Origin: Enoplolaimus lenunculus
Taxonomy: Eukaryota
Direction: 5' to 3'
Length of the DNA stretch: 64,000 nt
Assembly (NCBI GenBank): GCA_030248215.1
Contig: JASANG010003752.1
Span: forward strand, 310,001 to 374,000
The notes beneath the pieces were generated by a model, which was not told the origin of the DNA, did not search any database, and saw only the letters and a list, made by a program, of their open reading frames with translations. A program made the translations under genes and the position numbers. This document shows positions 10,229 to 46,068 of the stretch, in pieces. Each line of letters starts with the position of its first letter. Position 1 is the stretch's first letter.

Positions 10229-10504
10229 TAGCCATATTCGAATTTCAAAATTCTAATTTTAGCTCTCAAGCTTAATATCACACGCTTTGAACTTATAGCA
10301 AAAATGACTATCAGAATCTACGAATTATGTTAAAGTTTAAGTGCGTATTGTTTTCCCTTACACCCCGGTTCATTTTATCCAAGAGGCACACTCTCCTGTA
10401 TAATAATTGTAATCCGTACTCAAGCAAAACTTTAAAACCAGGCACCACAATAAATTATACACATGAAGAAGATACATTCAAATTACAGCACCTAAATACC
10501 ATGC

Positions 10505-11868
10505 TGTTGCGGACCACCCAGTTTGTTTTTTTAGAAAAACTTTCGGCCTAAATTTCAAACTAATGATAACTATGTATATTGTTTGCAAGTTTCGACTTTT
10601 TGTTTAACATTACTCCAATAATAACGTAACAATACTGATATAATTAGCCCATCTACGCAGTTTTTGTGTGTTGAAAACAATCTTTTTCAAAGCAGAACGC
10701 AACATTTTATAGTGTTTACGACACCAATAAACGCTTTAATTTTCACCCGCGTTTAGACGTTGGATTAAATAAACTGACAATGTTTTTTATGTAACAATTT
10801 TGCGAAATTAAAAATATTTAAATTTCGATGCGCATTTGACGTTGTTTATGTCTCAATATTGTGCTCAAAGGCTCGTGTTTCGTTAGTTTTAAGCAAATTT
10901 TTTGTATATTTTAGTTTATATAGGCTGTATGTGTCGTCGTGCCTAAAACGTACCGCAACTGGCGTTAATAATGTTTTTTATCCAAACATAAGTTGTTGAT
11001 TAATAATGGTAAGTTGAAAAAGTGTTATTGAACTAAGTTGGAAAACATTAAAGCCAGCATAAACTGTTTAATTTTTTAAATTGCAGTCCTTGCACTTTTG
11101 ATATTGATTATCCTCATTAGCATTTTAAAGAGTATTTTAACAAAAATTCCAGCAATGTTAATGGTTAACAATTTTAAATAGTAATGATGGTGTAGACCTA
11201 AAATATAAAAATATGTTGATAATTGTAGAGTGTTATAATGGTGTCATTAGTGCAAAATGATCTAAAAATTAATAGCTAAAGTGTACTTTTTCAGTACTGA
11301 GAAAAACATTAAAACTGATTTTTGGTTTTTCTTCATTCAAGCGGAAAAATATGTTAAAATTTAATTGCCTAAGAAGTTTAAAAGGCAAAATTTAAAAATT
11401 TTATTATCTTAGAGGTCTAATGAGCCTATCAATCAGGCTTGGAAACTAGAAATTTCGCACTATAAAAGAACAATTTTCAACTAAAAACGGCAGTTGGATC
11501 TCGAGGCGTGGTTGTTTTAAGTCAATTTTGAACAGTTTTATTGGGCAGTTTTTAGTGTGTGCAAGTTTGTTAATCGTTGACTTGAAATTGCTTTTGTCCA
11601 TTATAGAATTGGAGCGTTATTATTTACAATAACATACACTTGGTCAAGTAGTGATACAAATATTCCGTCAATTGTGGATCGAACTTCATTATCGTGTGAA
11701 TCATCTGAACTGTAAGTCAGGGCTGGCTATAGGAATAATGACCAATGTGTTAGTCTCGTTTGCTTAATGGGCGCTGTACGACATATTACATGATAATTTT
11801 TCTGTGGGTGAACTGAGGAGTCTAAAAATCATTAAAAATTTCATAGTCCCTGTATCTGAATCGTAACA
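10505..11868 (+). repeat. 5' LTR (1364 bp)
   Basis: Begins TGTTGCG and ends CGTAACA (imperfect inverted termini); first ~650 bp about 97% identical to 24017 onward by manual count; followed by the PBS. Confidence 0.92.
11461..11495 (+). promoter_or_regulatory. LTR promoter: TATA box and probable initiator
   Basis: TATAAAAG at 11461 with GCAGT ~30 nt downstream; the same arrangement is kept in the 3' LTR (TATAAAAG at 24854, GCAGT at ~24885). Confidence 0.65.
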
Positions 11869-11870
11869 TT

Positions 11871-11893
11871 TGGAGGTCCCACCGAGATTTGAA
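11871..11893 (+). other. Primer-binding site complementary to the tRNA-Gln 3' end
   Basis: TGGAGGTCCCACCGAGATTTGAA, 2 nt after the LTR end, is the reverse complement of TTCAAATCTCGGTGGGACCT-CCA, the conserved metazoan tRNA-Gln 3' arm (recalled from known sequences). Confidence 0.88.
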
Positions 11894-12017: not shown

Positions 12018-13943
12018 ATGAAAAGAGCCAGATCGCTAAGTCCAATTCCGGAAGAACCTGCAAGTAATTATTTATCCTATATTAATATTGAAGAGTTAAT
12101 TCCTATATTAGACGTAAGTGTAAGAACACCTAGACAGCATAGATACGAATTTAGAAACATGGATCAACTTCAACAGGATGTCACACACTTGACACAAAAT
12201 GTGAGACAGCTTACTGATGGTATGGCTCATATGAATTCTGCCCTTGCCCAAACTAGGGTAACTGGTACTACTGATACCGATCTGGTAATACATCCGTTTC
12301 ACGGAGGATTAACGGGCCCTGATTTTAACACATGGTTAGAAAATTTTAATTTAATTTGCGCGGCAAAACTGATAGATGATGAGATGAAATTGCGGGTATT
12401 ACCTGCATATCTTAGAGATATTGCAAAGGATATATACGATGGGCTAGCTACTGAGGATAAACGCAGTTTTAAATCAATTTGCACTGCATTAGAGCGTAAG
12501 CTAGCCTCCCCGGAGTTAGCAGTTTATCATGAAGCTGCCTTACAAGGCCGCGAACAAATGGAAGGCGAATCGTTATATTCTTATTTAAAAGATATTAAAA
12601 GAGCGTGTCGACGAGCCTATGCAGGCGAGTCAGAGGAAACGATCCGCCGTTTTATTATTGGGAAATTCTTTTCGGGAATTCGCTCTTCTGAAATTAAGGC
12701 TCAAGTACTTAATGAAATGCCCATGCATACATTGCAACAAGCAGATGATATTACTATGCGTTTAGATATGCAGGCAATAACTTTTCCGAAAACTCAAGGT
12801 ACCCTGGGGATACAAAATTATCTGCCACAACCACAAAATATTGTTAGTACAATACCAACCAATACAGGGCAACAAAGACAGACCAATAATAAACGCATGG
12901 AGCGTTCCCTGGAACACTTGATTCGCACACAACAGGGTTTAATAAACTCTGTAAACCGGGTGCAAAATAAGATTCAGAAGATGGAGAGAAATCATAACAA
13001 AATACGGGGAAATACACATTTTAATTGCAGACAAACAAACCCGCCTAGTCAACAGGCATATAATAGGTGCATTATTAATAATCCTAGAACTACCACAAAC
13101 TCGCCAAGATGTTATACATGTGGCAAGATTGGCCATACTGCCGCAGGATGTCAGATAGCAAGACAAGTACCATTAGATAGCAGTAAAAATTCATACACTT
13201 CAGCAAGAACTGGGTTCAGACCATCTTATAATACTAGACAACAAGCTCAGACATGGAACCCACGACAAACACAGTATTATTCTAGCTCCGCACCCCAACA
13301 AAGTACACAAATACGCAACATAAGTAATGCTGCGGCAGAAGTCGCAGCAGTTTTTAGAAAAACATCAGATGAAACTACGTTGCGTAAAATTCAGAACGAA
13401 TTAGAAGAAACTAAGAAGAAATTTGACCAAGTAAGCAAGGAAAAAGAAGTATTACTAAAACAGAAAGCAATGTTAGTCGAGAAAATTTATCCTGAAGTTG
13501 TAACTTGTGTTGGAATGGTAGTAATTGGTGAAACTAAGGAAAAACAGATAGACCAAACCATGAAAGAAAATCGGAGTGAATCGTTGACTAAAGGAAGCAA
13601 TTTGAATGATTGTAATTTAAATTGCTTGCCCAAAAATCAAAATTCAATTACGTCGGAGATCGGAATTAGTGGTGGTGATAATTCTCAAACAATAGACGAT
13701 ATTAAAGAAAAGGAATTAAGTGTAGCAAAAATTACGAAGCGATATTGCTCACAACCAGATATAAACAAGATAACTTTTAATATTGCAGTTCCTCAAGAAT
13801 CTGTAGCTCCTAAAAGTAAATGTTTTCAGTTTTATAATATAACGGCAAGCAAAGAAAACTATAAATTTTCTGGATATCGTTGGAACAGCCTTATCAGGGT
13901 TTCGAAAGAGGCTTGCAGATCAAAGTTAGCCTCGCATAAATAA
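12018..13943 (+). CDS. gag: Gag (capsid-like domain, CCHC nucleocapsid, coiled coil, C-terminal extension)
   Basis: FNTWLENF...LPAYLRDIAKDIY, MHR-like LQGREQMEGESLYSY, zinc knuckle CYTCGKIGHTAAGC. First ATG at 12018; ends at a single TAA, after which the same frame stays open. Confidence 0.9.
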   Translation: MKRARSLSPIPEEPASNYLSYINIEELIPILDVSVRTPRQHRYEFRNMDQLQQDVTHLTQNVRQLTDGMAHMNSALAQTRVTGTTDTDLVIHPFHGGLTGPDFNTWLENFNLICAAKLIDDEMKLRVLPAYLRDIAKDIYDGLATEDKRSFKSICTALERKLASPELAVYHEAALQGREQMEGESLYSYLKDIKRACRRAYAGESEETIRRFIIGKFFSGIRSSEIKAQVLNEMPMHTLQQADDITMRLDMQAITFPKTQGTLGIQNYLPQPQNIVSTIPTNTGQQRQTNNKRMERSLEHLIRTQQGLINSVNRVQNKIQKMERNHNKIRGNTHFNCRQTNPPSQQAYNRCIINNPRTTTNSPRCYTCGKIGHTAAGCQIARQVPLDSSKNSYTSARTGFRPSYNTRQQAQTWNPRQTQYYSSSAPQQSTQIRNISNAAAEVAAVFRKTSDETTLRKIQNELEETKKKFDQVSKEKEVLLKQKAMLVEKIYPEVVTCVGMVVIGETKEKQIDQTMKENRSESLTKGSNLNDCNLNCLPKNQNSITSEIGISGGDNSQTIDDIKEKELSVAKITKRYCSQPDINKITFNIAVPQESVAPKSKCFQFYNITASKENYKFSGYRWNSLIRVSKEACRSKLASHK

Positions 13944-16940
13944 GATAAATCAGAATATCAAATCGAACATTTTGCCAATACAGAGATATTAGACGATTAT
14001 GTTGTCAAAAAATTGTCACCTTCGATAAAGATCAGTGACTGTAACAACATATCAGAATGCTTCTTAATTACCAACAAAGCCTACAGTGAATGTTTCATTT
14101 GCCCTATAACTTGTTGTTGCGAAATAATTGATATTGAATTATATAAATTACAGGCAGATCCATTTTATTTGACAGACCGATCAAATCAAACCAGTGAAGT
14201 GGTCAGGTGTGACGTTCAAATCGCATTTTCACCGTCACAACACCTACATCTCATGGAACAACCGCAATGTGAGTATATAAACATTACACCTAAGAAACGG
14301 AATTACATAAAAATCAGATTCTATCACGGGGAAAATTTTAAAATTAAGAAATTACAAACAACAGGTATAGGCCCACCAATGTATACTAATACTGACATAT
14401 TACGATTAAGTCTCACCGACCTTACTATATTAGGCCCAGAGTTGGTGCTGGATAATTTGGTCAAGCGAGCCAAATTTCCAGAACCATATTCAAGTAGTTA
14501 TAATCATGGGATCGGTTTTATAGATAAACTGAATATGTATGGATTGTCATATAATGATTATGTTGATACAAAAAGGAAGTTGTCAAAGGAATTATGTGTT
14601 ATTCAAAAAACATTTTTTGACGAATCCCGGACGCCCCCTAGGAGACCTTCAATTAAATATGATTTAGCAACTACTACTCCTAAAAATTTAGAAGGTACGC
14701 CATTAGTTAAGCCACAAAAACCTATAACCAAATTTATAACACCATGGCTGAGCGTGATATGTTTACTTACCATAATTAATACAGTAAATGCCACGATGGC
14801 TGGAGGTTTAAAGGAATTTCACTCCCAAATTTTTCCCGGAGTAGGAATGGGCATAGTGCCTAGCGGTATCCTCCTTACGTCAGAACGTTCAGAGTATGTC
14901 CCGATCATGTTGCATATGCAGCATAGCTTTTACAACTTGAGTGAACCCCCCAGGCTCATTAATCATTCAGACTGTCCTGGTCGCTTCAATTTCATTGAAT
15001 TTACTCACCGATATTTGCAAAAATTTGATTTAGAATTTTCCCAAACCTTTGACCCCAGATTTTACGAAGAATTGTTGAGAGGCGTTTGTCATGATAATCA
15101 AAATATTTGCACGTTTCCAAAAGCAGAACGAAGCAAACGTTTTTTGCCCCTTTTGTTGACAGGATTAATGTCACTGGCAGGCACGGGGATGGGGATTGCA
15201 AATAGCCTCCAGCTTTCTTATCTTCAGCCAAAAATTAGTGCATTAACGCAAGCGGTACCAATACTTGAACATAAAATTGGAATACAAGCACGAGCCATCC
15301 ACCAACTTTCCATTCAAAATCAACAAATTTATACTTTTACCCATAAAGCAATGACATTTTTGGACCACATGGTTGCACATATTACGTGCGAGTTAAAAGG
15401 GTTTGGTCAAGAAATGCACCAAATTTCCCAGGCAAATTTGTTTGTTATGCAAATAGAACGGTTGGTGAAATCTGTTAGTACCGCAAGCTTAGAGGGAAAA
15501 ATAGATTCAGAAATACTAAGTGCCACCCAGATTACCAGATTAATAAGAGCAGAACCTGCTCTACGAAAAACACTATATGAACACGAACCTAGCCTATTCT
15601 ATCAATTTGTTACGGCATACCCAGTAATAGTAAATATTGCCCAACTAAAATTTGGGATCATTTTAGAAATCCCCAAAATTACTAAAAGAGATATTCTCCC
15701 TTTGTTATCTATCTCTAACGTTGGCTTCAATATACCCGAGAAAAATATTACTAACCGCATTAAGTTTCCTACTTATATGACTTATGATAGTCATCATGGT
15801 GTGAACTCATATCTAGAAGTTGTTCCCTCCCTTTGTAAAAGGCTACCGGGATTATGGTATTGCCCGTTGCAGGCTGTACCTCGTTCAGAAGCTAATGAAT
15901 TCCTAACGGCAATCGCGAGATTTGAACAATGGAGTAAATCATGCAAAGTGCAGGTTACACAATTTCGGCAAGGTAACACCTTAGATACTACTCGAGTTGG
16001 TGTAATGGTCCGTACGAGTGATAGATTTGCAAAAGTCACTACTAACCGAGAAGTCCAATTTTCATCACGGAGCGAGAGACTCGCGATACCGCCCTATGGA
16101 GTTTATTTCTTCCCCCATGAGAAATATTCTTTAATAACTGTTGGTGATAGGATAATCACGTCCACAGTACGTGATATACAACATTTTACTTTCAACATTA
16201 GTAAAATTCCCACTCCAAGTTCAAACTTTTCGGGACTCCCTTCTCCACATTGGATCGATATGCTTGATGCCGAGTATCACACTAATCTTAGTCGGGAATT
16301 AACCCGTAGCCAAATCGACCACACTTTACTACCCGTGACCGCGCAACATTCGTCGTTAATGCATATAATCATTGCATTAATCTGTGCGTTAATTGTAATA
16401 TTGGTAACCACATGTTTTAAGAGACGTGACGATATTTGGCGGGTTGTTAAAGGTATTTGGGATAAAAAGGAATATTGTGAATTTTGTTGCAAGAGGAATA
16501 AAAGTAGGTTTAGATATATTCGGCAGGAGATTGAACCAGAGGAGTTACAAGAATTTACAGCACCCTCGCTAAGTATCGTAAGCGCTGAAGAGATATCTCA
16601 CAAGACTGTAGGAATAAATTGTCCATCAAGCCTTACTTCATCTATAGTGCCTATCCGAGTTCGTCCACCAAGGGTACCAACCCCAATGCCTATATTAGAG
16701 ACAAGATTCTCCAATTTTCTGAATAGTTTTAAGGCTCCAGGAAAAAGTGAGACAACAGGAGAAAATACCCTGATAGGACGTATGCCTAATGAACAAAATA
16801 CTTCAGAACAACCTACATGTTCCAATTTATTATCCGGTGCTGCAGCAGCAGTTACTAGGCATAGATATTTTACGGCACTTGGGTACCATAACAATAAACT
16901 ATGCAAAAAGTGGAGCTTTCATAGAGGGAAACAAAATTAA
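13944..16940 (+). CDS. env: Cys-rich unknown domain plus envelope-like class I fusion glycoprotein (baculovirus F / errantivirus env-like), in the gag frame
   Basis: Internal signal sequence WLSVICLLTIINTVNA (~14745-14792), furin site RSKR (15129-15140) followed directly by hydrophobic peptide FLPLLLTGLMSLAGTGMGIA, heptad region, GKIDSEILS and IILEIP motifs, 6 N-glycosylation sequons, TM helix (16356-16418) followed by KRR. Confidence 0.85.
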   Translation, partial: DKSEYQIEHFANTEILDDYVVKKLSPSIKISDCNNISECFLITNKAYSECFICPITCCCEIIDIELYKLQADPFYLTDRSNQTSEVVRCDVQIAFSPSQHLHLMEQPQCEYINITPKKRNYIKIRFYHGENFKIKKLQTTGIGPPMYTNTDILRLSLTDLTILGPELVLDNLVKRAKFPEPYSSSYNHGIGFIDKLNMYGLSYNDYVDTKRKLSKELCVIQKTFFDESRTPPRRPSIKYDLATTTPKNLEGTPLVKPQKPITKFITPWLSVICLLTIINTVNATMAGGLKEFHSQIFPGVGMGIVPSGILLTSERSEYVPIMLHMQHSFYNLSEPPRLINHSDCPGRFNFIEFTHRYLQKFDLEFSQTFDPRFYEELLRGVCHDNQNICTFPKAERSKRFLPLLLTGLMSLAGTGMGIANSLQLSYLQPKISALTQAVPILEHKIGIQARAIHQLSIQNQQIYTFTHKAMTFLDHMVAHITCELKGFGQEMHQISQANLFVMQIERLVKSVSTASLEGKIDSEILSATQITRLIRAEPALRKTLYEHEPSLFYQFVTAYPVIVNIAQLKFGIILEIPKITKRDILPLLSISNVGFNIPEKNITNRIKFPTYMTYDSHHGVNSYLEVVPSLCKRLPGLWYCPLQAVPRSEANEFLTAIARFEQWSKSCKVQVTQFRQGNTLDTTRVGVMVRTSDRFAKVTTNREVQFSSRSERLAIPPYGVYFFPHEKYSLITVGDRIITSTVRDIQHFTFNISKIPTPSSNFSGLPSPHWIDMLDAEYHTNLSRELTRSQIDHTLLPVTAQHSSLMHIIIALICALIVILVTTCFKRRDDIWRVVKGIWDKKEYCEFCCKRNKSRFRYIRQEIEPEELQEFTAPSLSIVSAEEISHKTVGINCPSSLTSSIVPIRVRPPRVPTPMPILETRFSNFLNSFKAPGKSETTGENTLIGRMPNEQNTSEQPTCSNLLSGAAAAVTRHRYFTALGYHNNKLCKKWSFHRGKQN

Positions 16941-19900
16941 ATTTGGAAAAACAAGCAGGCAAAAAGTCTCATTGCCTGAGAGTATTACAATACCCCCACA
17001 GACGGAAATAATAATACCATGCAGTACAGATGGATTAACAGCAAATGTGGAGCATGTTCTATTTGAGCCGCACATTATGCTACATGCAGAGTACAACTTA
17101 CTTATAGCACCGTTACTATTGTCTAATCAATCAACCATACACATACCGGTACGCATAGTTAACCCATGTAGATATCCGGTGAAACTCTATAAGAATCTTA
17201 CATTAGGACAATTAGAAGCATTGGATAAAAGTTTTATTGTGAATGCAACAGGATACAATGCTAAAGAAGCCAAACTCACTTTTTTGCAGCAGGCAAACTT
17301 TGGTGACCAGCTTTCAATAGAAGATTTAAAACAGTTGGAAAAGCTTTTGGAAGAGTTTTCCGATGTTTTCTCAAAAAGCGAATATGATTTGGGAAAAGTA
17401 ACAGCTGTAAGTCATAAGATTGAAACTTTGGACGCACATCCAATCAAACAACGACCATACCGAGTTCCTCTAAAATTGAAGGAACCGGTTGAATAAGAAA
17501 TTAATAAGATGTTAGACATGAACATCATTGAACCGTCGGTTAGTCCTTGGGCAAGCCCAATCGTTGTTTTACGAAAGAAGGATGGAAAATCACTTCGAAT
17601 ATGTGTAGATTATAGAAGGTTAAATCAACATACAGTCAAAGATTGTTACCCACTACCAAACATAAATGATTTGTTGGATACAATTGGAAAAGCGAAATAT
17701 TTTAGCGTAGGTGATTTAGTATCAGGGTATTACCAAGTACCAATGGAGGAATCTTCCATTGAAAAGACCGCGTTTGTTACACCAATGGGTCTGTTTCAAT
17801 ACAAAACTATGCCGTTTGGGCTCTGCAATGCCCCCGCGACGTTTCAGCGATTATTAGAGGCTACATTGCGTGGACTGCAAGGTCGAGTCTGTACTGTCTA
17901 CATTGATGACATTTTGGTATTTTCAGAAACATTCATTCAGCATTTAGAGCGTCTCCGTCAAGTGTTACAACGTTTGCGCGAAGTAGGGTTAAAATTAAAA
18001 CCGGAAAAATTGCTGTTTTGCAGTACACGAAGTCGAGTATTTGGGGCATATAATATCGAGTACTGGTTTACGGCCAGATCCTAAAAAGACAATACAAGTA
18101 CAGAATTTTCCCATACCGACAGGTTTACGTAGTCTACGAGGTTTTTTGGTTTGGAGGGTTACTACAGACGTTTCATTAAGGACATTGCAAAAATTGCTAG
18201 TCCGTTTCATTGATTACTTAAGAAAAATAATGCTTTTGATTGGAATACAAACTGTCAGCAAGCATTTGAAACTTTAAGAACCAAGCTAACATCACCTCCA
18301 GTGCTTGTCATAGTTAATCCAAACCTTCCTTATATACTTGAAACAGATGCAAGTGGTACTTGCATAGGTGGGGTACTCTCGCAAGAACACGACGGTAAGA
18401 TAAACCCAATAGCTTTCGGAAGTAGAACATTACAAAAAGCCGAAAGAAATTATAGTATAACTGAATTAGAAGCCTTGGCTGTCGTGTATTTTGTGAAACA
18501 TTTTCGAAATTATTTATATGGGCAAAAATTTAAACTTATAACTGATCATTCTGCCTTGAAATGGATTTTAACTAACAAAAATAGTTCAGGTAGGTTGCAA
18601 CGTTGGGCGCTTACGCTAATGGAATATGATTTCACCATTGAGCATAAACCTGGAAAACGCATGAGTCATGTAGAAGCGTTGTCTAGACTTGAAAATGGTG
18701 TTAATGTTGACAGTCATAGTGATACCGAAACCGAAAATATTCATTTCGCTTACGCAATTGGAAAACCATCAACAACACCTTCTAATACTTTAGCAGAAAC
18801 ACAATCAAGGAGTCAAGAACACGATAAGGTTAACTCAGATAGATATGAACGGTTTGCTGAAATGCAGGCAAAGGATCCATATATTAGCACAATATTACAA
18901 TATCTATTGCAAGGTAAATTACCTGATGACGAAAAGACGGCTCGTTATTTAACACTTTCGAGGCCAAGATTTTTCACGCATAATAATTTGTTATATCACC
19001 ATTACCCTACTCTCCGTGCAGGACCTCGGATAGCTTGGGAGCAGTTGGTCGTACCAGAAAATATGAAGCAGGAAATTTTATCGGCTCATCATGATGATGT
19101 TGTCGGAGGACAGCATTCTGGAATCTCCAGAACATACCATAAGATACTCCCAAAATATTATTGGGAAGGAATGTATCAGGATGTCGTCAAATGGTGCAAA
19201 TCTTGTGTTGATTGCTGTACTCGCAAGCATGGACCACATCGGCCTAATGCACCGTTAGTTCCTATTCCTACAAACGAGCCAAACCACACCTATCATGTAG
19301 ATGTTCTAGGACCCTTACCAGAATCATACAATGGCAACAAATACGTTATCATATTTGTTGACCGGTTCACTAAATATCCAGAAGCAATTTGTACCCGAGA
19401 TCAGAAAGCGTTTACTATAGCCAAACTATTTATGACGGAAATAGTATGTAGACATTCTGCACCTTTTGCATTAATAAGCGATAATGCTCCTAATTTTAGA
19501 AGTGAATTATTGGACGAAATTACCAAAATTGCAGGTACTCGAAAATTTTTTACTACCCCCTATCGTCCACAGACCAATGGAGTTGTTGAACGAATTAATG
19601 CCACATTCATGCAAATGATAAGCCAATATGTGGATACAGCTCAACGAACTTGGGATGAGTTTGTGCCATACGCATGCTTGGCTTATCGTATAAGTGTAAA
19701 CGAAACCACTGGATATAGTCCTTTTAGTTTGGTTTATGGCAGAGACCCTAGACTACCAATAGATATATCTTTGCCAGTATCAAACCGAGGTTACATTGAT
19801 GAGGATGACTATGCTAGAGATGTTAGATTGGCTTTATATGATGCATGGCAGTTAGCTGCAGAAAACATAACTAAAGCGCAACAAGTAATGAAGGAAAGAT

Positions 19901-20229
19901 ATGATCAAAAAGCTATTGATCCAAGTTATAAAATTGGCGATAAAGTTTTGTTACATACCCCTTTTTCAAAGAAAGGAAAAACCCATAAACTTGCCCATCA
20001 GTGGCAGGCTCTTTTTGAAGTAATTGATATTAAATATCCAAATGTAGTAATTAAGTCATTAACAGCTAGGCAACCTAAGCCATTGAAAGTTCATGTAAAT
20101 CGTATAAAGCCTTTTTACGATTCACCCTCTCATATTCCTATTGCAGGAACCCTTACTAAGAGTGATAGCCGTGTAGTACACGAAGCAGATCCAAATTTAG
20201 AAGCAGAAATAAGTAATGATTCAGAGTAA
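16777..20229 (+). pseudogene. pol: Disrupted pol: protease C-terminal remnant, spacer domain, reverse transcriptase, RNase H, integrase
   Basis: LLGIDIL; RT motifs SPWASPIVV, RICVDYRRLN, MPFGLCNAPATFQR, YIDD; RNase H ETDAS / ELEALA / TDH; integrase HHCC and D-D-E (HVDVLGP, ISDNA, GVVER). Lesions: TAA 17494, +1 frameshift ~18010, -1 frameshift ~18148, TGA 18211. Confidence 0.95.
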
Positions 20230-20429
20230 TGTTAATATTATAATGTTAATTTTATTTTATTTCAGAATCGTCAACAATCGTCAATCGCTAACGTCGAGCT
20301 CGTTTCAACCTACACCCAGCCCACACCTATAAACAATCACATAAAGTCCAATAGGACGCTTTACTATATTCAATTCTATTGCACAATATACACAACACCG
20401 CACTTTAAACACTTATAGCAAATGACAAC

Positions 20430-23400
20430 ATGGCAACATACACCAAGGACATTCTAGAGTTCGCAGCAACAGTATGCCTTGCGGACATCCTACCGGAAGA
20501 ACAACGAAAAAACTTCCAGAATTGGCATGGAGTAAATGCCTATATTCCAATGGACACTTTAGTAAAATTTGCCCCGAGATATCCAAATAACGTAGAAGCC
20601 ACGATCACTGATTTTATTTCACCGTCCAAAGCCACGTCCTACAGAAACTTTTGTATGGTATGTTTATGTCCGATCCACGATTCGCTACACTTGGTTTCGA
20701 CACGACATCTGTTTATGTCGAGTAGCCAATTGTTCCGCCTGAATGTTACCGACGAACGAAGACTGCTGTTTCAGCAGTGGATAAAAGAGCACGGATTATA
20801 CCATGAGCATAAAGTACTGAAGAATCTGAACGCCGTGTTAACGTTTCCCAAGATTTCCTCCACAACAGCGACCGCTGTTGGGATGCATGCCCAATTATCA
20901 AATCAAGGGTACGATATACCAATTGTCTTTGGAAACTCGGCAACTGGATCCCAAGACCTAACGTTCCATTTGACGATTCGAAACAAAGGTGCCGTTAGCA
21001 TAGAATACATAGGCGTCCATACAATAGTGAACGGTGCAAATGGTAATAAGTTGCGTCCGATATTTGAAATGCCAACGAACTGCACGCACCAAGAAAAAAT
21101 AATGATAACAATCGAATCACAAACACCTGGAATACAATTCTACACTCTCCAAGTATGGGTTGAAGCCAAACAGTTCGGCAAGAACTCTGTGCTATTGCCC
21201 TTATGGTGCGAAGTACGCTGGAACTGGCACGATTACCACTTAGAACACTGTATTGCACGATATCTCGAAGACATTGCCCGAGTTCGACCCAAACAGACAG
21301 ATGGTGTCGCATTATCGTCTATACCAGACAGTCTATTTAATCCACCATTGATACCAACAGGAGAAGGATCGGAACAACGTGTTTGTAAGCCAGCTCGGTT
21401 TACTCAATCGTGTTTTACTCCATACTTCAAGGCCTGGGAACGAAAAGATACAACAATGCGTAATCATAGTGAAATCGCAGTACGCTCAGTGGACATCCAG
21501 TCACATGGTGGTTTCGATGATCACAATGTACAAATAAAAGACATTGAAGCAATTCTAGACAGCGACGCAGTGATTACAAAGGACAACTTAGGACACCGAT
21601 GCTTGGCCGAAGTCATTGGACAAACACAATACGACGAAGATGTTCCTGAACGATGTTCTATAATATCAACGCAAATTTTACCAGAAGACGAAGTCAACGA
21701 CATAGGGACCTTACAATCAGATGAGTCCGCAATATATGTGAGTTCCAAAGTGCCGAGCCGAGAATATCAAAATATTAGAAGTAAATCAATGACAGATCGC
21801 CTTCGCATTGTACATCCACGGTGGGATGCCAAATTACCAGCTTATGTAGTAGGTGAAAAAAACGATGATGATCAAATGGTGACAACCGTGCAATTGAAAC
21901 TTAACGCTGGACTGAAGAAAATCGTAGAATCCATGGTTGAAAGCGAATCGAGGCGAGTTGACACAAATCAGCCGTTCCTAATTCCGATGCCAAGTATAGT
22001 AACTGGATACCTTTTGGCACTGTATAAAATGCTTCTGATCAATGAAGACGATGAAGCAAAAGTAGAGACAGCCTCAGCAAATGTCGAAGATAATACGGAA
22101 ACGTTTCGGGACAAATCTAATGTTAACGACAACAGTATCACAAATTTATCAGAATTATCCGAACCGGATATAACATTAGTCGATGAAATCAATGAAAGTG
22201 AATGTACAGCGTCGATAGAAACATCCGATATAGATAATCCACCACCAACAAAAGTGACAAAATCAAATTTTACAACCGAACGACTACAAGCCTCGCAAGA
22301 TGAAACGATGACCAATGAAGACGACCAATCATCCATCAAAAAACGATTCAAGTACGACCTCAAACGAAGTTGGCACAAGATCATCAATCACATGTTTGGA
22401 CACGATTCACCAGCCAAACAATATGAAAAAAGGACATTACCAACAACAATATACAATTATACCGAACAGTTGGATCCAGAACAAAAACAAATTCTCGACG
22501 CAATAATAAACGGTGATCCGATAATAGCTTGTCAAGCTCCACCTGGTACCGGAAAGACACACGTTATCGCCCTAATAATGGTTTTAATGAACACCGTTTT
22601 TCCAGAAGAGCGATATCTGTGTATAGCTCCGACGAATGCAGCAGCAAACGTTTTAGCTAAGAAGATTCAATCGTATTTTAAGAAGTTGTTTGGTCAAGTT
22701 CCACCACAATCGTTATTACGTATGGTTCGAGAAGGTTACCCAATCGATGAACTGGGCGAATTAATACAACATTCGAATTTCGTGGCTGCCGATACCGAAA
22801 GTAGCGACATACAAGCTGATTCCCGAATACCTGAACACAAGATACTGGTTACAACAGTGGATCTAGCAATTATGAATCTACTTAATCATCGAAAAACACT
22901 CGCAGACGCAGGACTATTCAAACTTCTTGTAATCGATGAAGCTGCTTCGGTGGATCTACCGCGAACGTTGTTAGCAGCCTTATTGGTTTCAAACGGTCAG
23001 ATCGTGATGCTTGGCGATACAAAACAGTTGCCAGCCTACATAACATCGCCAAAACTAAAATCAGTCGCTGGAGACGAATCAGGAATGGAGTTCATTAGCA
23101 GAGCAGCCAGTAAAGCGAAAAGAGTAAAACTTAAAACACTTAAGCGAAATTACCGAAGTGTGGCAAGTATTTTGGGCCCACCAAGCGCAATCATATACAA
23201 AGACGCACCACTGATCGCTGAAAATCATGATCAATTGAGCCAACAAAATGAGCAGTTGAATGACGCTACAAATGGAATGTTAAACACCGTCTTATTTCCA
23301 GCAAGGAATGGCGTATCATTCGTGCATGTTGAAGGAACAATGATTCGGCATGGGAGTAGTTTATACAACATCGCCGAGATCCATCACGTACTCGAAATAG

Positions 23401-23975
23401 TAAATAGAATGATAAAATTAGGGATTCCGCCCCATAGCATCGGAATAGACGCAACGTACGCGGCGCAAAGTAAACTGTTAAAGAAACTGCTAACTAAACA
23501 ACAACCAGAACTACGAATAGGGTGTGCGAACACGTGGCAGGGCAACGAATGTGATTTCATGATCATTAGCCTCGTACGGTCCGACGGATTTTATGATACA
23601 TACGGTCAAGAATGTGATCAAGGATTCCTGCACGATTTCCGACGACTGACAGTAAGCACAACCAGAGCAAGGCGGGGACAAGTGATCATTGGAAATACAC
23701 TGCGATTTCTATATCACCCCTTAATCATGGAAACACTTCGAGCATGTCACGCCTACGATGGATTCATAAACGACTATCAGACTGAAACACCCCAAATAGT
23801 TCAAAACCGAATTCAAATCGCGTTAGCAATCACAAACTACATACATTTACACATATGTGACAGTTGGCAAAAAGATCCGGATAACTGTAACAACGACCAT
23901 ACTGTTGGAGCAGCGGCACAAAACCCCAATCAATACTACTGCACGGATCATACATCGATTCCAGAAAGATTTTAA
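20430..23975 (+). CDS. Superfamily 1 helicase, UPF1/DNA2/NAM7/MOV10-like, 1181 aa, intronless, inside the LTR element
   Basis: Motifs in the correct order: I QAPPGTGKT (~22533), Ia IAPTNAAAN, II VIDEAA (22935), III LGDTKQLP, NYRS, NIAEI, IGIDATYAAQ, V TWQGNECDFMIISLVRS, VI GFL..RRLTVSTTRAR. N-terminal CxxC-x8-H-x5-H. Confidence 0.93.
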   Translation: MATYTKDILEFAATVCLADILPEEQRKNFQNWHGVNAYIPMDTLVKFAPRYPNNVEATITDFISPSKATSYRNFCMVCLCPIHDSLHLVSTRHLFMSSSQLFRLNVTDERRLLFQQWIKEHGLYHEHKVLKNLNAVLTFPKISSTTATAVGMHAQLSNQGYDIPIVFGNSATGSQDLTFHLTIRNKGAVSIEYIGVHTIVNGANGNKLRPIFEMPTNCTHQEKIMITIESQTPGIQFYTLQVWVEAKQFGKNSVLLPLWCEVRWNWHDYHLEHCIARYLEDIARVRPKQTDGVALSSIPDSLFNPPLIPTGEGSEQRVCKPARFTQSCFTPYFKAWERKDTTMRNHSEIAVRSVDIQSHGGFDDHNVQIKDIEAILDSDAVITKDNLGHRCLAEVIGQTQYDEDVPERCSIISTQILPEDEVNDIGTLQSDESAIYVSSKVPSREYQNIRSKSMTDRLRIVHPRWDAKLPAYVVGEKNDDDQMVTTVQLKLNAGLKKIVESMVESESRRVDTNQPFLIPMPSIVTGYLLALYKMLLINEDDEAKVETASANVEDNTETFRDKSNVNDNSITNLSELSEPDITLVDEINESECTASIETSDIDNPPPTKVTKSNFTTERLQASQDETMTNEDDQSSIKKRFKYDLKRSWHKIINHMFGHDSPAKQYEKRTLPTTIYNYTEQLDPEQKQILDAIINGDPIIACQAPPGTGKTHVIALIMVLMNTVFPEERYLCIAPTNAAANVLAKKIQSYFKKLFGQVPPQSLLRMVREGYPIDELGELIQHSNFVAADTESSDIQADSRIPEHKILVTTVDLAIMNLLNHRKTLADAGLFKLLVIDEAASVDLPRTLLAALLVSNGQIVMLGDTKQLPAYITSPKLKSVAGDESGMEFISRAASKAKRVKLKTLKRNYRSVASILGPPSAIIYKDAPLIAENHDQLSQQNEQLNDATNGMLNTVLFPARNGVSFVHVEGTMIRHGSSLYNIAEIHHVLEIVNRMIKLGIPPHSIGIDATYAAQSKLLKKLLTKQQPELRIGCANTWQGNECDFMIISLVRSDGFYDTYGQECDQGFLHDFRRLTVSTTRARRGQVIIGNTLRFLYHPLIMETLRACHAYDGFINDYQTETPQIVQNRIQIALAITNYIHLHICDSWQKDPDNCNNDHTVGAAAQNPNQYYCTDHTSIPERF

Positions 23976-24003: not shown

Positions 24004-24016
24004 AAGGAGGGAGTGG
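24004..24016 (+). other. Polypurine tract
   Basis: AAGGAGGGAGTGG immediately before the TG of the 3' LTR. Confidence 0.85.
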
Positions 24017-25217
24017 TGTTGCGGACCACCCAGTTTGTTTTTTAGAAAAACTTTCGGCCTAAATTTCAAACTAAAGATAACTATGTATATTGTTTGCAAA
24101 TTTCGACTTTTTGTTTAACATTACTGCAATAATAACGTAACAATACTGATATAATTAGCCCATTTACGCAGTTTTTGTGTGTTGAAAACAATCTTTTTCA
24201 AAGTAGAACGCAACATTTTATAGTGTTTACGACACCAATAAACTCTTTAATTTTCACCCGCGTTTAGACGTTGGTTTAAATAAACTGACAATGTTTTTAT
24301 ATGTAACAATTTTGCGAAATTAAAAATATTTAAATTTCGATGCGCATTTGACGTTGTTTATGTCTCAATATTGCGCTCAAAGGCTCGTGTTTCGTTAGTT
24401 TTAAGCAAATTTTTTGTATATTTTAGTATATATAGGCTGTATGTGTCGTCGTGCCTAAAACGTACCGCAACTGGCGTTAATAATGTTTTCTATTCAAACA
24501 TAAGTTGTTGATTAATAATGGTAAGTTGAAAAAGTGTTATCAAACTAAGTTGGAAAACATTAAAGCCAGCATAAACTGTTTAATTTTTTAAATTGCAGTC
24601 CTTGCACTTTTTGAGATTGATTATCCTCATTAGCATTTTAAAGAGTATTTTAACAAAAATTCCAGCAAAGTGAATTTTATCAGTACTGAAAATAACATTA
24701 AAATTGATTTTTGGCTTTTCGTCACTCAAGCGGAAAAAAAAAGTATACTAAAATTTAGTTGCCTAAGAAGTTTAAAAGTTAAAATTTAAAATTTTATAAT
24801 CTTAGAGGTCTAATGAGCCTATCAATCAGGCTTGAAAACTAGAAATTTCGCACTATAAAAGCAGCAGTTTTTAACAAAATTTAGGCAGTGTTTAGTCAGG
24901 TTTGGGCGTGAAAGTTTCATTTAGTTATTTTTTCTGAAAAGATTTTCCGCTTATTATAGACCGCGGGTCGTTTTACTGAGTGCATCAAGTTGTCAAAGTT
25001 TTACAATTATCACGTCTATGGTTTTCGTTGCGTCTGATCAACGTGTACCGAAATTGAATTGTAAGTCAGGGCGGGTACTAAGTGTAATAGTTAATTGTCA
25101 TGGACTTGTTTGCCTTATGGGCGCTTCACTACTTTTTCTTCGTTTATTTCACAAAGGCTCTACTGCCATAATTAATAAATAAAAAAAATCAATAGCCGTT
25201 ACCTTGTAATCGTAACA
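24017..25217 (+). repeat. 3' LTR (1201 bp)
   Basis: Begins TGTTGCGGACC after the PPT and ends AATCGTAACA like the 5' LTR; lacks ~123 bp present at 11156-11278. Confidence 0.88.
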
Positions 25218-32623: not shown

Positions 32624-33861
32624 ATGAAGTTCTTATTCTACAATAATAGTTTTCCACCCTGGTACGTTCATAATCACTACGTGACAGTTGAAGAACTTGT
32701 GAACCCGCAACTTTCATACCGGCTACGATTACACCCAAGTTTTTTGCCTCTATTTTATCGTTGCTTAGTTCAATATTTTACACCATTAACAGTAAACGTC
32801 GTTTACTCTGATTTTGCAAATTTAAACACATTTAACAGTACAGGCGCTTTTCTACTGGCACACGACATTAATTTTGCTCCACCAATATGGTTCCTAACAT
32901 ATGGCCGATTTCCATTGGCAAAATGGATCCTGCCCCGATTGCCGACGAAAAAAGCAGCATCTTGATACACCCACATCCTGTGGCGTACACTCTTAATCCG
33001 TTCGCCGTGATTAGCGTTCACGTTTGGATTGCTGCAGTGCTTACAAACAAAGTTTACGCGATTACCATTTATACGATGGATTGCTACTCATCAGGACAGA
33101 TTCGATTTTCTTGCAATCAACTTTGTTATTATTTTGTTAAACTGCATTTTTTAAAATTTTCATTTCACCACCGCATAAGAAATCCACGAAAACTGTTGTG
33201 GGCAAAACAGCTGGTACTGCTGAGTATGGTGCTACACGCCCTGGGAAGTATGATTGGACAAAAGTATTTTAAAAAATCATACTTTAACCGTCTGTCTGAA
33301 ATCGCGTACAATCCGCTTGACAACGTCAACAGCAGAAACGATTTAATTCCATTGACTGAAAATTACAAATTTATCACTGAAAAGAAATCGTTCAAAAGTT
33401 ACAAAGAATTGTTGACCAACAGTAACAAACATCTCTTGCTAGCCAAAACAACTGAATTTCCGTTTATGACACTCGCTAACAAATTAGCAACCACCCCTGG
33501 TTACATAGCGATTGGTGTGACGACAAACAAAGCGAAATATATTCGCGCAACGCATTCTGACATTCATATGAAGCAATTGCAATCGCAAGTGTCAATGTAC
33601 CTTGCGTTTGCACTGTTTCACCATCAACAAAACCTGTCAACAAAGCTGACCAAGTTTAGCGAAGCAATGTTTCAAGGCGGTATTTATGACAAAATATTAA
33701 AGTTGTCTACTTTAGCGGTTGGAATAAAAAAATTGAACAAACACGAAGACGTTGCGCAAGTGAAACCCATTCAGATGATTTCGTTCAGAAATACCTTCCT
33801 CTGTTTCGCCGTCGGATACTTGATTACCGTTTGTGTATTTGTATCAGAAATAACAGGTTAG
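32624..33861 (+). pseudogene. Intronless divergent ionotropic receptor (IR / iGluR-derived chemoreceptor)-like gene with one frameshift
   Basis: Two overlapping ORFs (32624-32965, 32887-33861) join at the C run 32933-32936. S1-like FLTYGRF..WILP, pre-M1 'NPF..ISVHVWI', S2 'YLAFAL...MFQGGIYDK', and the IR-typical terminus 'KPIQMISFRNTFLCFAVGYLITVCVFVSE'. Confidence 0.65.
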
Positions 33862-44360: not shown

Positions 44361-45602
44361 TTTTGCATAAAAAATTATGTACAGATGAACAAACTGAGTA
44401 ATAAATACCTATAACATTATAAACAACGTATCCCTTGGCGGCAGTGTTCAAAAACAAATGAAAAATACTAGAATCGGTGGCTAAAAAAATTTGCCACAGC
44501 CGAAAGTGAAGCGAAATTACGCAGTTAAAATAATGTTTAATTTGCTAATTTGATCAAAAATATATTTGTCAAATGTTGTCAAAATATTAGGTTTTAGACT
44601 ATGTTTATTTGTTAAGGAATACCGACCACTCATTCTTTATAATAATTATACCCATTGTTAAAAGCAACAAGTTTCTAACAATGCAATTTTGTGAAACTAT
44701 GAAAAATTTTACTACCGAAATTGCCGAAATTTCAGTCACAAATTCTACCTTAGCAGAATACAAAGGTCTCCTCTTCTGCGGGAGCCGGAGCTCGAGGCAG
44801 ACCTCCTGTTGTACCCTGCTTTGCTGTGTTCTTAGTTTAGTTATTGCAGGGCCGCAACTACGGAAGGATGAGAGGTTGCGTCGCCCATAAGTGTTTAAAA
44901 ATTTTGTTTTAGGAATGTTTACGAGAAATATCAGCATTTAAGGTTTGAAGGCTGATCCAAAATTACAAATAAACTTAGTTACGGAAAGAAACTCTGTAAA
45001 ACTACACAAAGTTCCACTTCCGACATTGCTACAACATTCGGAAAAAATTCTATCGGGGCCGTAGCCGGATGTACGCTTTCTGCTTGAGTTCGGTGGTAGA
45101 CCTCGGGCTGTACTGTGATATCGACGGTTTCTGTTTCCTGAGCCCATTTCGAAAACCAAATGTTTGAGCCCCATAACAACGGCAGATTCACGACCTTTCG
45201 TTTGGTACATACAAGGATGGCCAATCGCGCCGAATTTTGAATCCTAGGAGACTGAGTGAGCAGACTGGGCCAAACCGTTCGCCACTTGTGTACCCATTGC
45301 AAAAGTGCACTACTCTCAACTACACATGATATCTCAAGGGTAAGCTGCAAAAACATGAACACACACACAGACAATGCACACGTTCCGCTGTCCAAAACTT
45401 AAAATTCCAGAATTGATTGTAGTAATCCAAAACGTTAAATTAGAATATTGCACCGACCGATACCGTAAAATACCGATCCTATGCCGACACTTATCATATG
45501 TACCATACCGCAAATCAAGCCAGACTGGCAGGACATAAAAAATTCCCGCGGCAAATGCCGATATTATCCTCGGTTCTGAATTTCAGCATTCTTAGAAGTC
45601 AG

Positions 45603-46068
45603 GGCCCATCTAAATAACAGGGGTGGAACCGTATTATAAGCATATTCCTAAGCCTAAGCCTAAGCCTAAGCCTAAGCGTAAGAATGAGCATATTCCTAAA
45701 CCTAAGCCTAAGCCTAACCGTAAGAATGAGCATATTCCTAAACCTAAGCCTAAGCCTAAGCGTAAGAATGAGAATATTACTAAACCTAAGCCTAAGCCTA
45801 AGCCTAAGCCTAAGCGTAAGAATGAGCATATTCCTAAACCTAAGCCTAAGCCTAACCGTAAGAATGAGCATATTCCTAAACCTAAGCCTAAGCCTAAGCG
45901 TAAGAATGAGCATATTCCTAAACCTAAGCCTAAGCCTAAGCGTAAGAATGAGCATATTACTAAACCTAAGCCTAAGCCTAAGCCAAGCAAAAAAATTAGT
46001 CTAAAGCTTGAGCTTACTCTGTTGTAGCCCCACAGAAAAACTTGCCGTCCCGGATCTTTACATGCGCC
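45603..46068. mobile_element. Merlin-like MITE with an expanded telomeric-repeat minisatellite
   Basis: GGCCCAT...CATGCGCC termini, perfect 8-bp TSD GAAGTCAG, internal (GCCTAA)n array. Confidence 0.8.
45639..45983. repeat. Compound minisatellite: 42-54-bp units of AGCATATTCCTAAACCTAA(GCCTAA)nGCGTAAGAATG
   Basis: Seven full units plus one partial; unit lengths differ by whole GCCTAA hexamers. Confidence 0.92.

Follow-up and report, generated by a model that had tools for sequence, protein, structure and literature searches.

We identified a Ty3/gypsy long terminal repeat (LTR) retroelement of 14.7 kb, with an envelope gene (env) lying between gag and the protease gene, in a 64,000-nucleotide stretch of DNA from Enoplolaimus lenunculus (assembly GCA_030248215.1, contig JASANG010003752.1, positions 310,001 to 374,000 of the forward strand). 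This whole stretch is referred to as the window, positions are numbered from its first letter, and features lie on the plus strand unless stated otherwise. The genes are arranged in the order gag-X-env-PR-RT-RH-IN, where X is a spacer and the last four are the protease (PR), reverse transcriptase (RT), RNase H (RH) and integrase (IN), followed by a separate open reading frame (ORF) for a Upf1-like helicase. The element is a decayed copy of a multi-copy family, and we consider it likely that the family makes one Gag-X-Env-PR-RT-RH-IN polyprotein in which a class I fusogen would be threaded through the membrane of the endoplasmic reticulum (ER).

The envelope domain between gag and protease

Domain calls for gag, RT, RNase H, integrase and the helicase were based on a Pfam scan of the window proteins. 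The gag ORF (12018..13943) encodes a capsid-like domain (Retrotrans_gag, E 4.7e-6), a CCHC knuckle at 13110 (zf-CCHC) and a coiled linker. A note made earlier on this DNA had placed env in the frame of gag with one stop codon between them, and ORF analysis bore this out, as a single TAA (13941-13943) closes gag and the same frame is then open for 998 codons (13944-16940). This open frame begins with X (13944..14720), a spacer of 259 amino acids with 10 Cys residues, which is predicted to be cytosolic because no hydrophobic segment lies upstream of it. No relatives of X were found by phmmer among 1.84 billion representatives, its top score in the Atlas was just 0.77, and nothing in the env relatives described below resembles it.

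The features that the earlier note had read upstream of PR and RT, namely an internal signal, RSKR with a fusion peptide, helices, a transmembrane (TM) segment and a basic tail, were confirmed by sequence and hydropathy. The signal segment (14721..14792, residues 260-283 of the 998-codon ORF) has a basic n-region, a hydrophobic core and a V-x-A end, terminating in TVNA, that forms a predicted signal peptidase site. The putative class I F-type ectodomain (14793..16346) contains the one RSKR of the ORF (residue 396; 15129-15140), which is followed from 15141 by a hydrophobic, Gly/Ala-rich fusion peptide, long heptad helices and Cys-containing beta domains. A predicted stop-transfer TM helix (16347..16412, residues 802-823, hydropathy 2.84) is followed by basic KRRD, and the translation then runs through a cytoplasmic tail that is basic, contains Cys and links env to the protease (16413..16855); its 3' limit was set at the point where other copies carry extra sequence.

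No Pfam family was named for the window env. Word-index searches at near and longer lengths found no env relatives, whereas an exhaustive phmmer search with the window polyprotein resulted in 109 relatives, all of which matched the env part only. A profile built from 52 aligned env sequences had solved paramyxovirus and metapneumovirus F proteins as its top matches, the best being 1ztm (E 4.6e-11), a paramyxovirus-type F chain named in the structure search as F of human parainfluenza virus 3 (hPIV3). Across these 52 sequences the furin-site Arg and several Cys residues are at least 90% conserved, and none of them matched Pfam Gypsy or Baculo_F at E 0.01. Ten env matches outside the clade of the window were looked up, and three of them are named virus glycoproteins (of Hubei odonate virus 10, an arlivirus and a lispivirus), which share 19-24% identity with env.

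The fold was then modelled with AlphaFold2 from a 91-sequence alignment, giving a predicted local distance difference test (pLDDT) score of 81; a fold from the single sequence had a pLDDT of 39 and was unusable. The top Foldseek matches of the model in the PDB were the F proteins of respiratory syncytial virus (RSV; E 6e-16), human metapneumovirus (hMPV) and hPIV3, and VIA comparison gave a Z of 16.2 against postfusion RSV F (root-mean-square deviation, rmsd, 16.8 over 344 residues) and of 15.2 against hMPV F (rmsd 5.0 over 308 residues). Among the viral models of BFVD, the nine best matches were glycoproteins of lispiviruses, arliviruses or related mononegaviruses (E 2.5e-25 to 4e-19), with baculovirus F ranking behind them (E 2e-12). 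Fusion_gly clusters were also at the top in the ESM Atlas (0.96), with a recognition value under the usual threshold. The model upholds the fusogen that the earlier note had suspected, with a predicted class I F fold that matches pneumo-/paramyxovirus F and, best among the viral models, lispivirus-type glycoproteins. Judged by profile and model together, env is a class I F-type fusion protein of a lispivirus- or pneumovirus-like kind and is not gB-like.

Single-frame relatives, other copies and a probable threaded polyprotein

The 109 env matches were sorted by layout using gag and protease profiles, which resulted in 7 proteins with gag, env and protease in one ORF, 3 with gag only, 7 with protease only and 92 with neither, a count that has to be read with the knowledge that both profiles were built partly from the same proteins. 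Independent support for the single-ORF layout is given by Pfam domains in two relatives: env is surrounded by CCHC, protease, RT, RNase H and integrase zinc finger domains in P0011 (2531 amino acids) and by gag, protease and RT domains in P0118 (3134 amino acids, a cluster member). In each of the seven proteins with gag, env and PR, env is preceded by a signal-like segment and followed by a TM segment. A quick env tree with a midpoint root was made from 75 of 91 rows (16 were dropped for coverage <60%), and the window fell within a group of 23 rows (SH-aLRT 99). Fusion to gag or PR was found in 12 of the 22 other rows of this group versus 0 of the 52 rows outside it, where the named virus glycoproteins also sit.

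Individual relatives show further arrangements. In P0066, about 780 residues separate the signal segment from the F domain; P0088 has another order, with the protease (81-174) ahead of env (287-830); and a Cys-rich stretch with N-glycosylation sequons precedes the env signal in P0011 and could be a second luminal glycoprotein. P0003, an env-PR-RT-RH polyprotein filed under a Nitrospirales metagenome-assembled genome, is probably from an animal retroelement contig that was binned as bacterial. Scans of viral and genome contigs for the DNA context of the relatives, with relatives and the window env as queries, yielded nothing, and a metagenome scan for env yielded one 2.9-kb locus with env alone.

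The window copy itself is dead and cannot make the polyprotein. The earlier note had taken its protease as present, but only the C-terminal half is there, with a spacer (16856..17493): an LLG-D-L segment in the +1 frame matches a profile built from the proteases of 12 relatives (E 3.6e-5), and the catalytic D-T/S-G half is absent from all three frames. RT (17497..18213; YIDD, RVT_1 E 2.2e-32) is broken as well, by a stop just ahead of it (17494-17496) and by two frameshifts, near 18.0 and 18.1 kb, where other copies show one-letter differences.

Other copies were sampled as contigs of three public runs (X1, X2 and X3, from two samples of one study, one of which runs may be the window's own source). 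The family was found in all three runs, its contigs cover all 30 bins, env included, and the deep contigs are 97-100% alike. Expressed as contig depth, which is not copy number, another letter stands inside the gag stop codon in 812.5 of 854.3 for X1, 990.4 of 990.4 for X2 and 79.5 of 79.5 for X3; among the pieces listed, one X1 contig (depth 41.8) is identical to the window across this codon. Contigs of X1 and X2 depart from the window at 16855, where the protease gap lies, and the X2 contig continues for 255 letters. From the other letters in the gag stop and the extra sequence at 16855, both breaks look private to the window copy. Two programmed events were also considered and ruled out: read-through of the gag stop by the other letters that other copies have in that codon, and a +1 frameshift from env into protease by the absence of the catalytic half in every frame and the extra sequence of other copies at this point.

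A polyprotein that crosses the ER membrane twice is the best reading of the family, because relatives hold gag-env-PR(-RT) in one ORF in which env follows a signal segment and precedes a TM segment. Gag and X would be synthesised in the cytosol. Once some 900 residues had been made, the translocon would be engaged by the internal signal segment, Env would be moved into the lumen, and signal peptidase would cleave after V-x-A. The TM helix of Env would then halt transfer, so that the tail and PR-RT-RH-IN would remain cytosolic. Until the element's protease released them, the signal segment would anchor Gag-X to the membrane and the Env tail would do the same for Pol. Capsid, envelope and enzymes would in this way be brought together at a 1:1:1 ratio on a single membrane, ready for budding, and furin cleavage at RSKR would prime fusion. 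The slot 3' of pol, which is that of a spliced env in other gypsy elements, is held here by the Upf1-like helicase, probably on a spliced mRNA. The earlier note had proposed such a Gag-X-Env-Pol chain with two crossings; the single chain has gained support from the private stop and the single-ORF relatives with signal and TM, and the topology remains a prediction.

Several points weigh against this reading, in addition to the death of the window copy and the shared origin of the layout profiles. The earlier note had looked to other copies for a gag-env-pol frame in one piece, and although the contigs settled the gag stop and covered env in three runs, they span only parts of the element: none covers all of it, and an intact single-ORF copy of the window's own family was not seen among them. 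The relatives were drawn from JGI, ENA, NCBI and Logan records that carry no host names. In the RT tree, the window RT lies apart from the RTs of P0003, P0011 and P0118 (3 changes), although a single RT clade was not rejected in an approximately unbiased (AU) test with 24 rows (p-AU 0.35); an exchange of env between elements is thus possible. As for topology, two observations favour the reading: the net charge after the TM segment is positive in seven of eight sequences, and sequons are more frequent in the parts predicted to be luminal (44 of 228 Asn residues) than in those predicted to be cytosolic (45 of 379; p 0.017 by Fisher's test). The sequon test is weak and its sequences are related to one another, and the net charge before the signal segment is positive in just six of the eight. 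An extra hydrophobic segment in P0011 (521-548) suggests that the number of membrane passes may vary, and the fusion-peptide region of the env model (residues 122-173) has a pLDDT <50.

Other explanations of the same frame were weighed against these data. If a gene of a negative-strand RNA virus had been inserted, as env, into the window copy alone, or if the region were an assembly chimera, the differing 3' ends of the LTRs, the lack of a target-site duplication and the virus glycoproteins as closest named proteins would all be accommodated; this idea is largely refuted by the deep, near-uniform contigs of three runs, which include env, and by distant relatives with the same layout, and we give it almost no credence. 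The frame could also be continuous while most Gag and Pol come from a spliced message that skips env, with Env supplied by a minor full-length or a separate transcript and the threaded polyprotein a rarity. A strict 1:1:1 ratio of Gag, Env and Pol is unusual for retroelements, and the element contains donor-like sites (11947, 12114) as well as one or more that resemble acceptors; yet continuity of the gag-env-PR frame has been kept in seven very distant relatives, with signal and stop-transfer TM segments placed for a two-pass polyprotein, and splicing around env appears improbable as the main route.

Where Env would act is a further question. Polyprotein and topology may both be real with Env serving mainly as a membrane scaffold, either for budding inside the cell or for transfer to adjacent cells within the same animal, from soma to germ line, and not for infection between animals. 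For most such elements, PMC13524379 gives the mechanism of transmission as unknown. The conservation of the furin-site Arg and of several Cys is what a working fusogen would show, though it draws no distinction between cell-to-cell and host-to-host transfer, and we hold confinement to one animal to be quite possible. A broader proposal is rather unlikely to be right in full and is put forward tentatively: the threaded polyproteins, each joining a capsid, a lispivirus-derived class I fusogen and the enzymes, may belong to an unnamed lineage of infectious animal retroviruses in which the slot that env occupies, between gag and protease, works as a cassette whose content can be exchanged. Negative-strand RNA viruses infecting the same hosts would have supplied fusogens for it, of class III (in the known nematode elements called NERVs) or of class I. 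In this lineage the spliced env slot would have gone to a captured Upf1-like helicase that would shield the long RNA from decay.

Comparison with known retroelements and viruses

The gene order, which the earlier note had thought novel, has already been described. GAG-ENV-POL errantiviruses are reported from Nematoda, Bryozoa and Platyhelminthes (PMC13524379; Chary and Hayashi, eLife 2026), and the planarian element Burro/GYPSM1 was called the first case of an in-frame env flanked by gag and pol (PMC6431247; Arkhipova and Yushenova 2019). The former share with the window element the gene order, a similar length and a tRNA-Gln primer-binding site (PBS), the last in several Caenorhabditis members. 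They are said in PMC13524379 to carry an HSV/gB-type env only, and in its supplementary rows 55 of 55 GAG-ENV-POL elements are typed gB-like (class III), the 36 nematode rows being ENV_HSV without exception (36/36), in contrast to the F-type env of the window. The word helicase is absent from the main text of PMC13524379, which also argues that env seldom changes partners and refers to Sacco et al. 2022 (J Gen Virol, PMID 35550022) for NERVs, nematode elements with a Metaviridae Pol and env before pol. The gag-env-pro-pol order is common to NERVs and the window element. NERVs reportedly have this order in one continuous ORF, and some members are said to carry an accessory Upf1-like helicase ORF, a second likeness to the window element; the helicase would accordingly be known as well.

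Burro resembles the window element in that its env shares one reading frame and polyprotein with gag, which comes before it, and pol, which comes after. It is a much larger element of >30 kb, with many cargo domains in an ORF of 4,873 amino acids (PMC6431247). The internal region between the LTRs, >25 kb in such giant elements, is about 12.1 kb in the window, where the Pfam scan found none of the apoptosis and ubiquitin cargo families of Burro. Its env is reported to match mononegavirus fusion glycoproteins and to have an HHpred homology of 96.7% to gypsy Env (PMC6431247); this homology suggests an F-type class, so that the class I form may have a precedent in Burro. In PMC13524379, the rows for planarians are typed gB-like.

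Glycoproteins of Lispiviridae and the F proteins of pneumo- and paramyxoviruses share with the window env the class I fold, predicted here, and a furin site with a fusion peptide. In these negative-strand RNA viruses the protein has a gene to itself and begins with an N-terminal signal peptide, whereas the window env lies inside a longer polyprotein encoded by a retroelement. Lispiviridae have been reported in Trichinella and Trichuris transcriptomes (PMC11445058). The F-type errantiviruses, such as Drosophila gypsy and ZAM, combine a Ty3/gypsy Pol with an F-type env that has a furin site and a fusion peptide (PMC13524379). In these viruses env has an ORF of its own on the 3' side of pol, the slot that the helicase occupies in the window element. 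A literature search for gag-env-pol elements whose env is F-type or resembles that of lispiviruses, conducted outside subscription papers and figure supplements, found nothing beyond PMC13524379.

What is new here is a class I, lispivirus-like fusogen in the gag-env-pol slot, common to a clade of unnamed polyproteins and with the env of Burro as a possible precedent. An F-type env in a slot reported as gB-only, in what is likely a nematode element, points either to fusogens of different structural classes having been swapped or to the layout having arisen a second time. It also ties retroelement envelopes to lispivirus-type glycoproteins by sequence and by predicted fold, and it provides a testable model of a retroelement whose Gag, Env and Pol would all derive from a single chain that passes through the ER membrane two times.

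Element ends, helicase and host surroundings

The element extends well beyond the range first described for it (12018..17000), taking in two LTRs and the helicase ORF. It has the hallmarks of Ty3/gypsy elements (Metaviridae), namely LTRs, a PBS, a polypurine tract and gypsy-type domains in the Pol order PR-RT-RH-IN. The 5' LTR (10505..11868, 1364 nt) and the 3' LTR (24017..25217, 1201 nt) are direct repeats with the termini TGTTGCG ... CGTAACA. The PBS (11871..11888), of tRNA-Gln type, comes directly after the 5' LTR. For several Caenorhabditis GAG-ENV-POL elements, supplementary file 1 of PMC13524379 gives a Gln PBS 12-mer, and the first 12 nt of the PBS in the window are its reverse complement. 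The polypurine tract (24004..24013) precedes the 3' LTR, and RNase H and integrase (18214..20229; RT_RNaseH, Integrase_H2C2 and rve) follow RT in Ty3/gypsy order.

Identity between the LTRs is about 97-99% over the first ~650 nt and drops to 69-79% at the 3' end, and no matching target-site duplication was found around the LTRs of this copy. The window copy differs from the deep contigs of other copies by ~2% in env and PR (10/413 and 9/450 letters), by 1.1% in RH-IN (19/1702) and by about 0 in the helicase (1/1117 and 0/1176). From the diverging LTR ends, the missing duplication and the falling difference from the deep contigs, the copy looks mosaic, and recombination has likely joined an older 5' portion to a younger 3' portion. 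At 10458, contigs from each of the three runs diverge from the left flank into other sequence, suggesting that the flank is repetitive or the site polymorphic.

The helicase ORF (20409..23975, with the helicase feature itself placed at 20430..23975) is uninterrupted over 1188 codons and encodes a Upf1-like superfamily 1 (SF1) helicase (AAA_12, E 2.5e-31, and AAA_11) whose closest solved relatives are NAM7/UPF1 and SMUBP-2. Walker A, Walker B and motifs III and VI are kept, and the N-terminal ~680 residues are uncharacterised. A short out-of-frame ATG lies 8 nt ahead of the first ATG of the ORF, and a predicted splice acceptor (TTTCAG behind a T-rich tract) lies at 20260..20265. With its motifs kept, its sequence near-identical among copies and an acceptor-like site upstream, the helicase is likely made from a spliced mRNA. 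Viral SF1 helicases in insect retrotransposons are described in PMC6338049. The helicase of the window element may protect or remodel the element RNA.

In the window as a whole, 28 TTAGGC and 48 GCCTAA hexamers were counted. TTAGGC is the nematode telomere unit, and a minisatellite at 45553-46068 as well as dispersed repeats across 28-56 kb are built on TTAGGC/GCCTAA. These repeats make a nematode the likely host, although they fall short of proof, and the host genes found in the window are not diagnostic. On the minus strand, 35.3-42.3 kb contains exons of a host sodium:solute symporter gene, recognized by weak Pfam SSF matches. A 329-codon open frame with hydrophobic stretches but no convincing Pfam family lies on the plus strand at 32872-33861, and by eye we take it to resemble part of a ligand-gated or ionotropic receptor.

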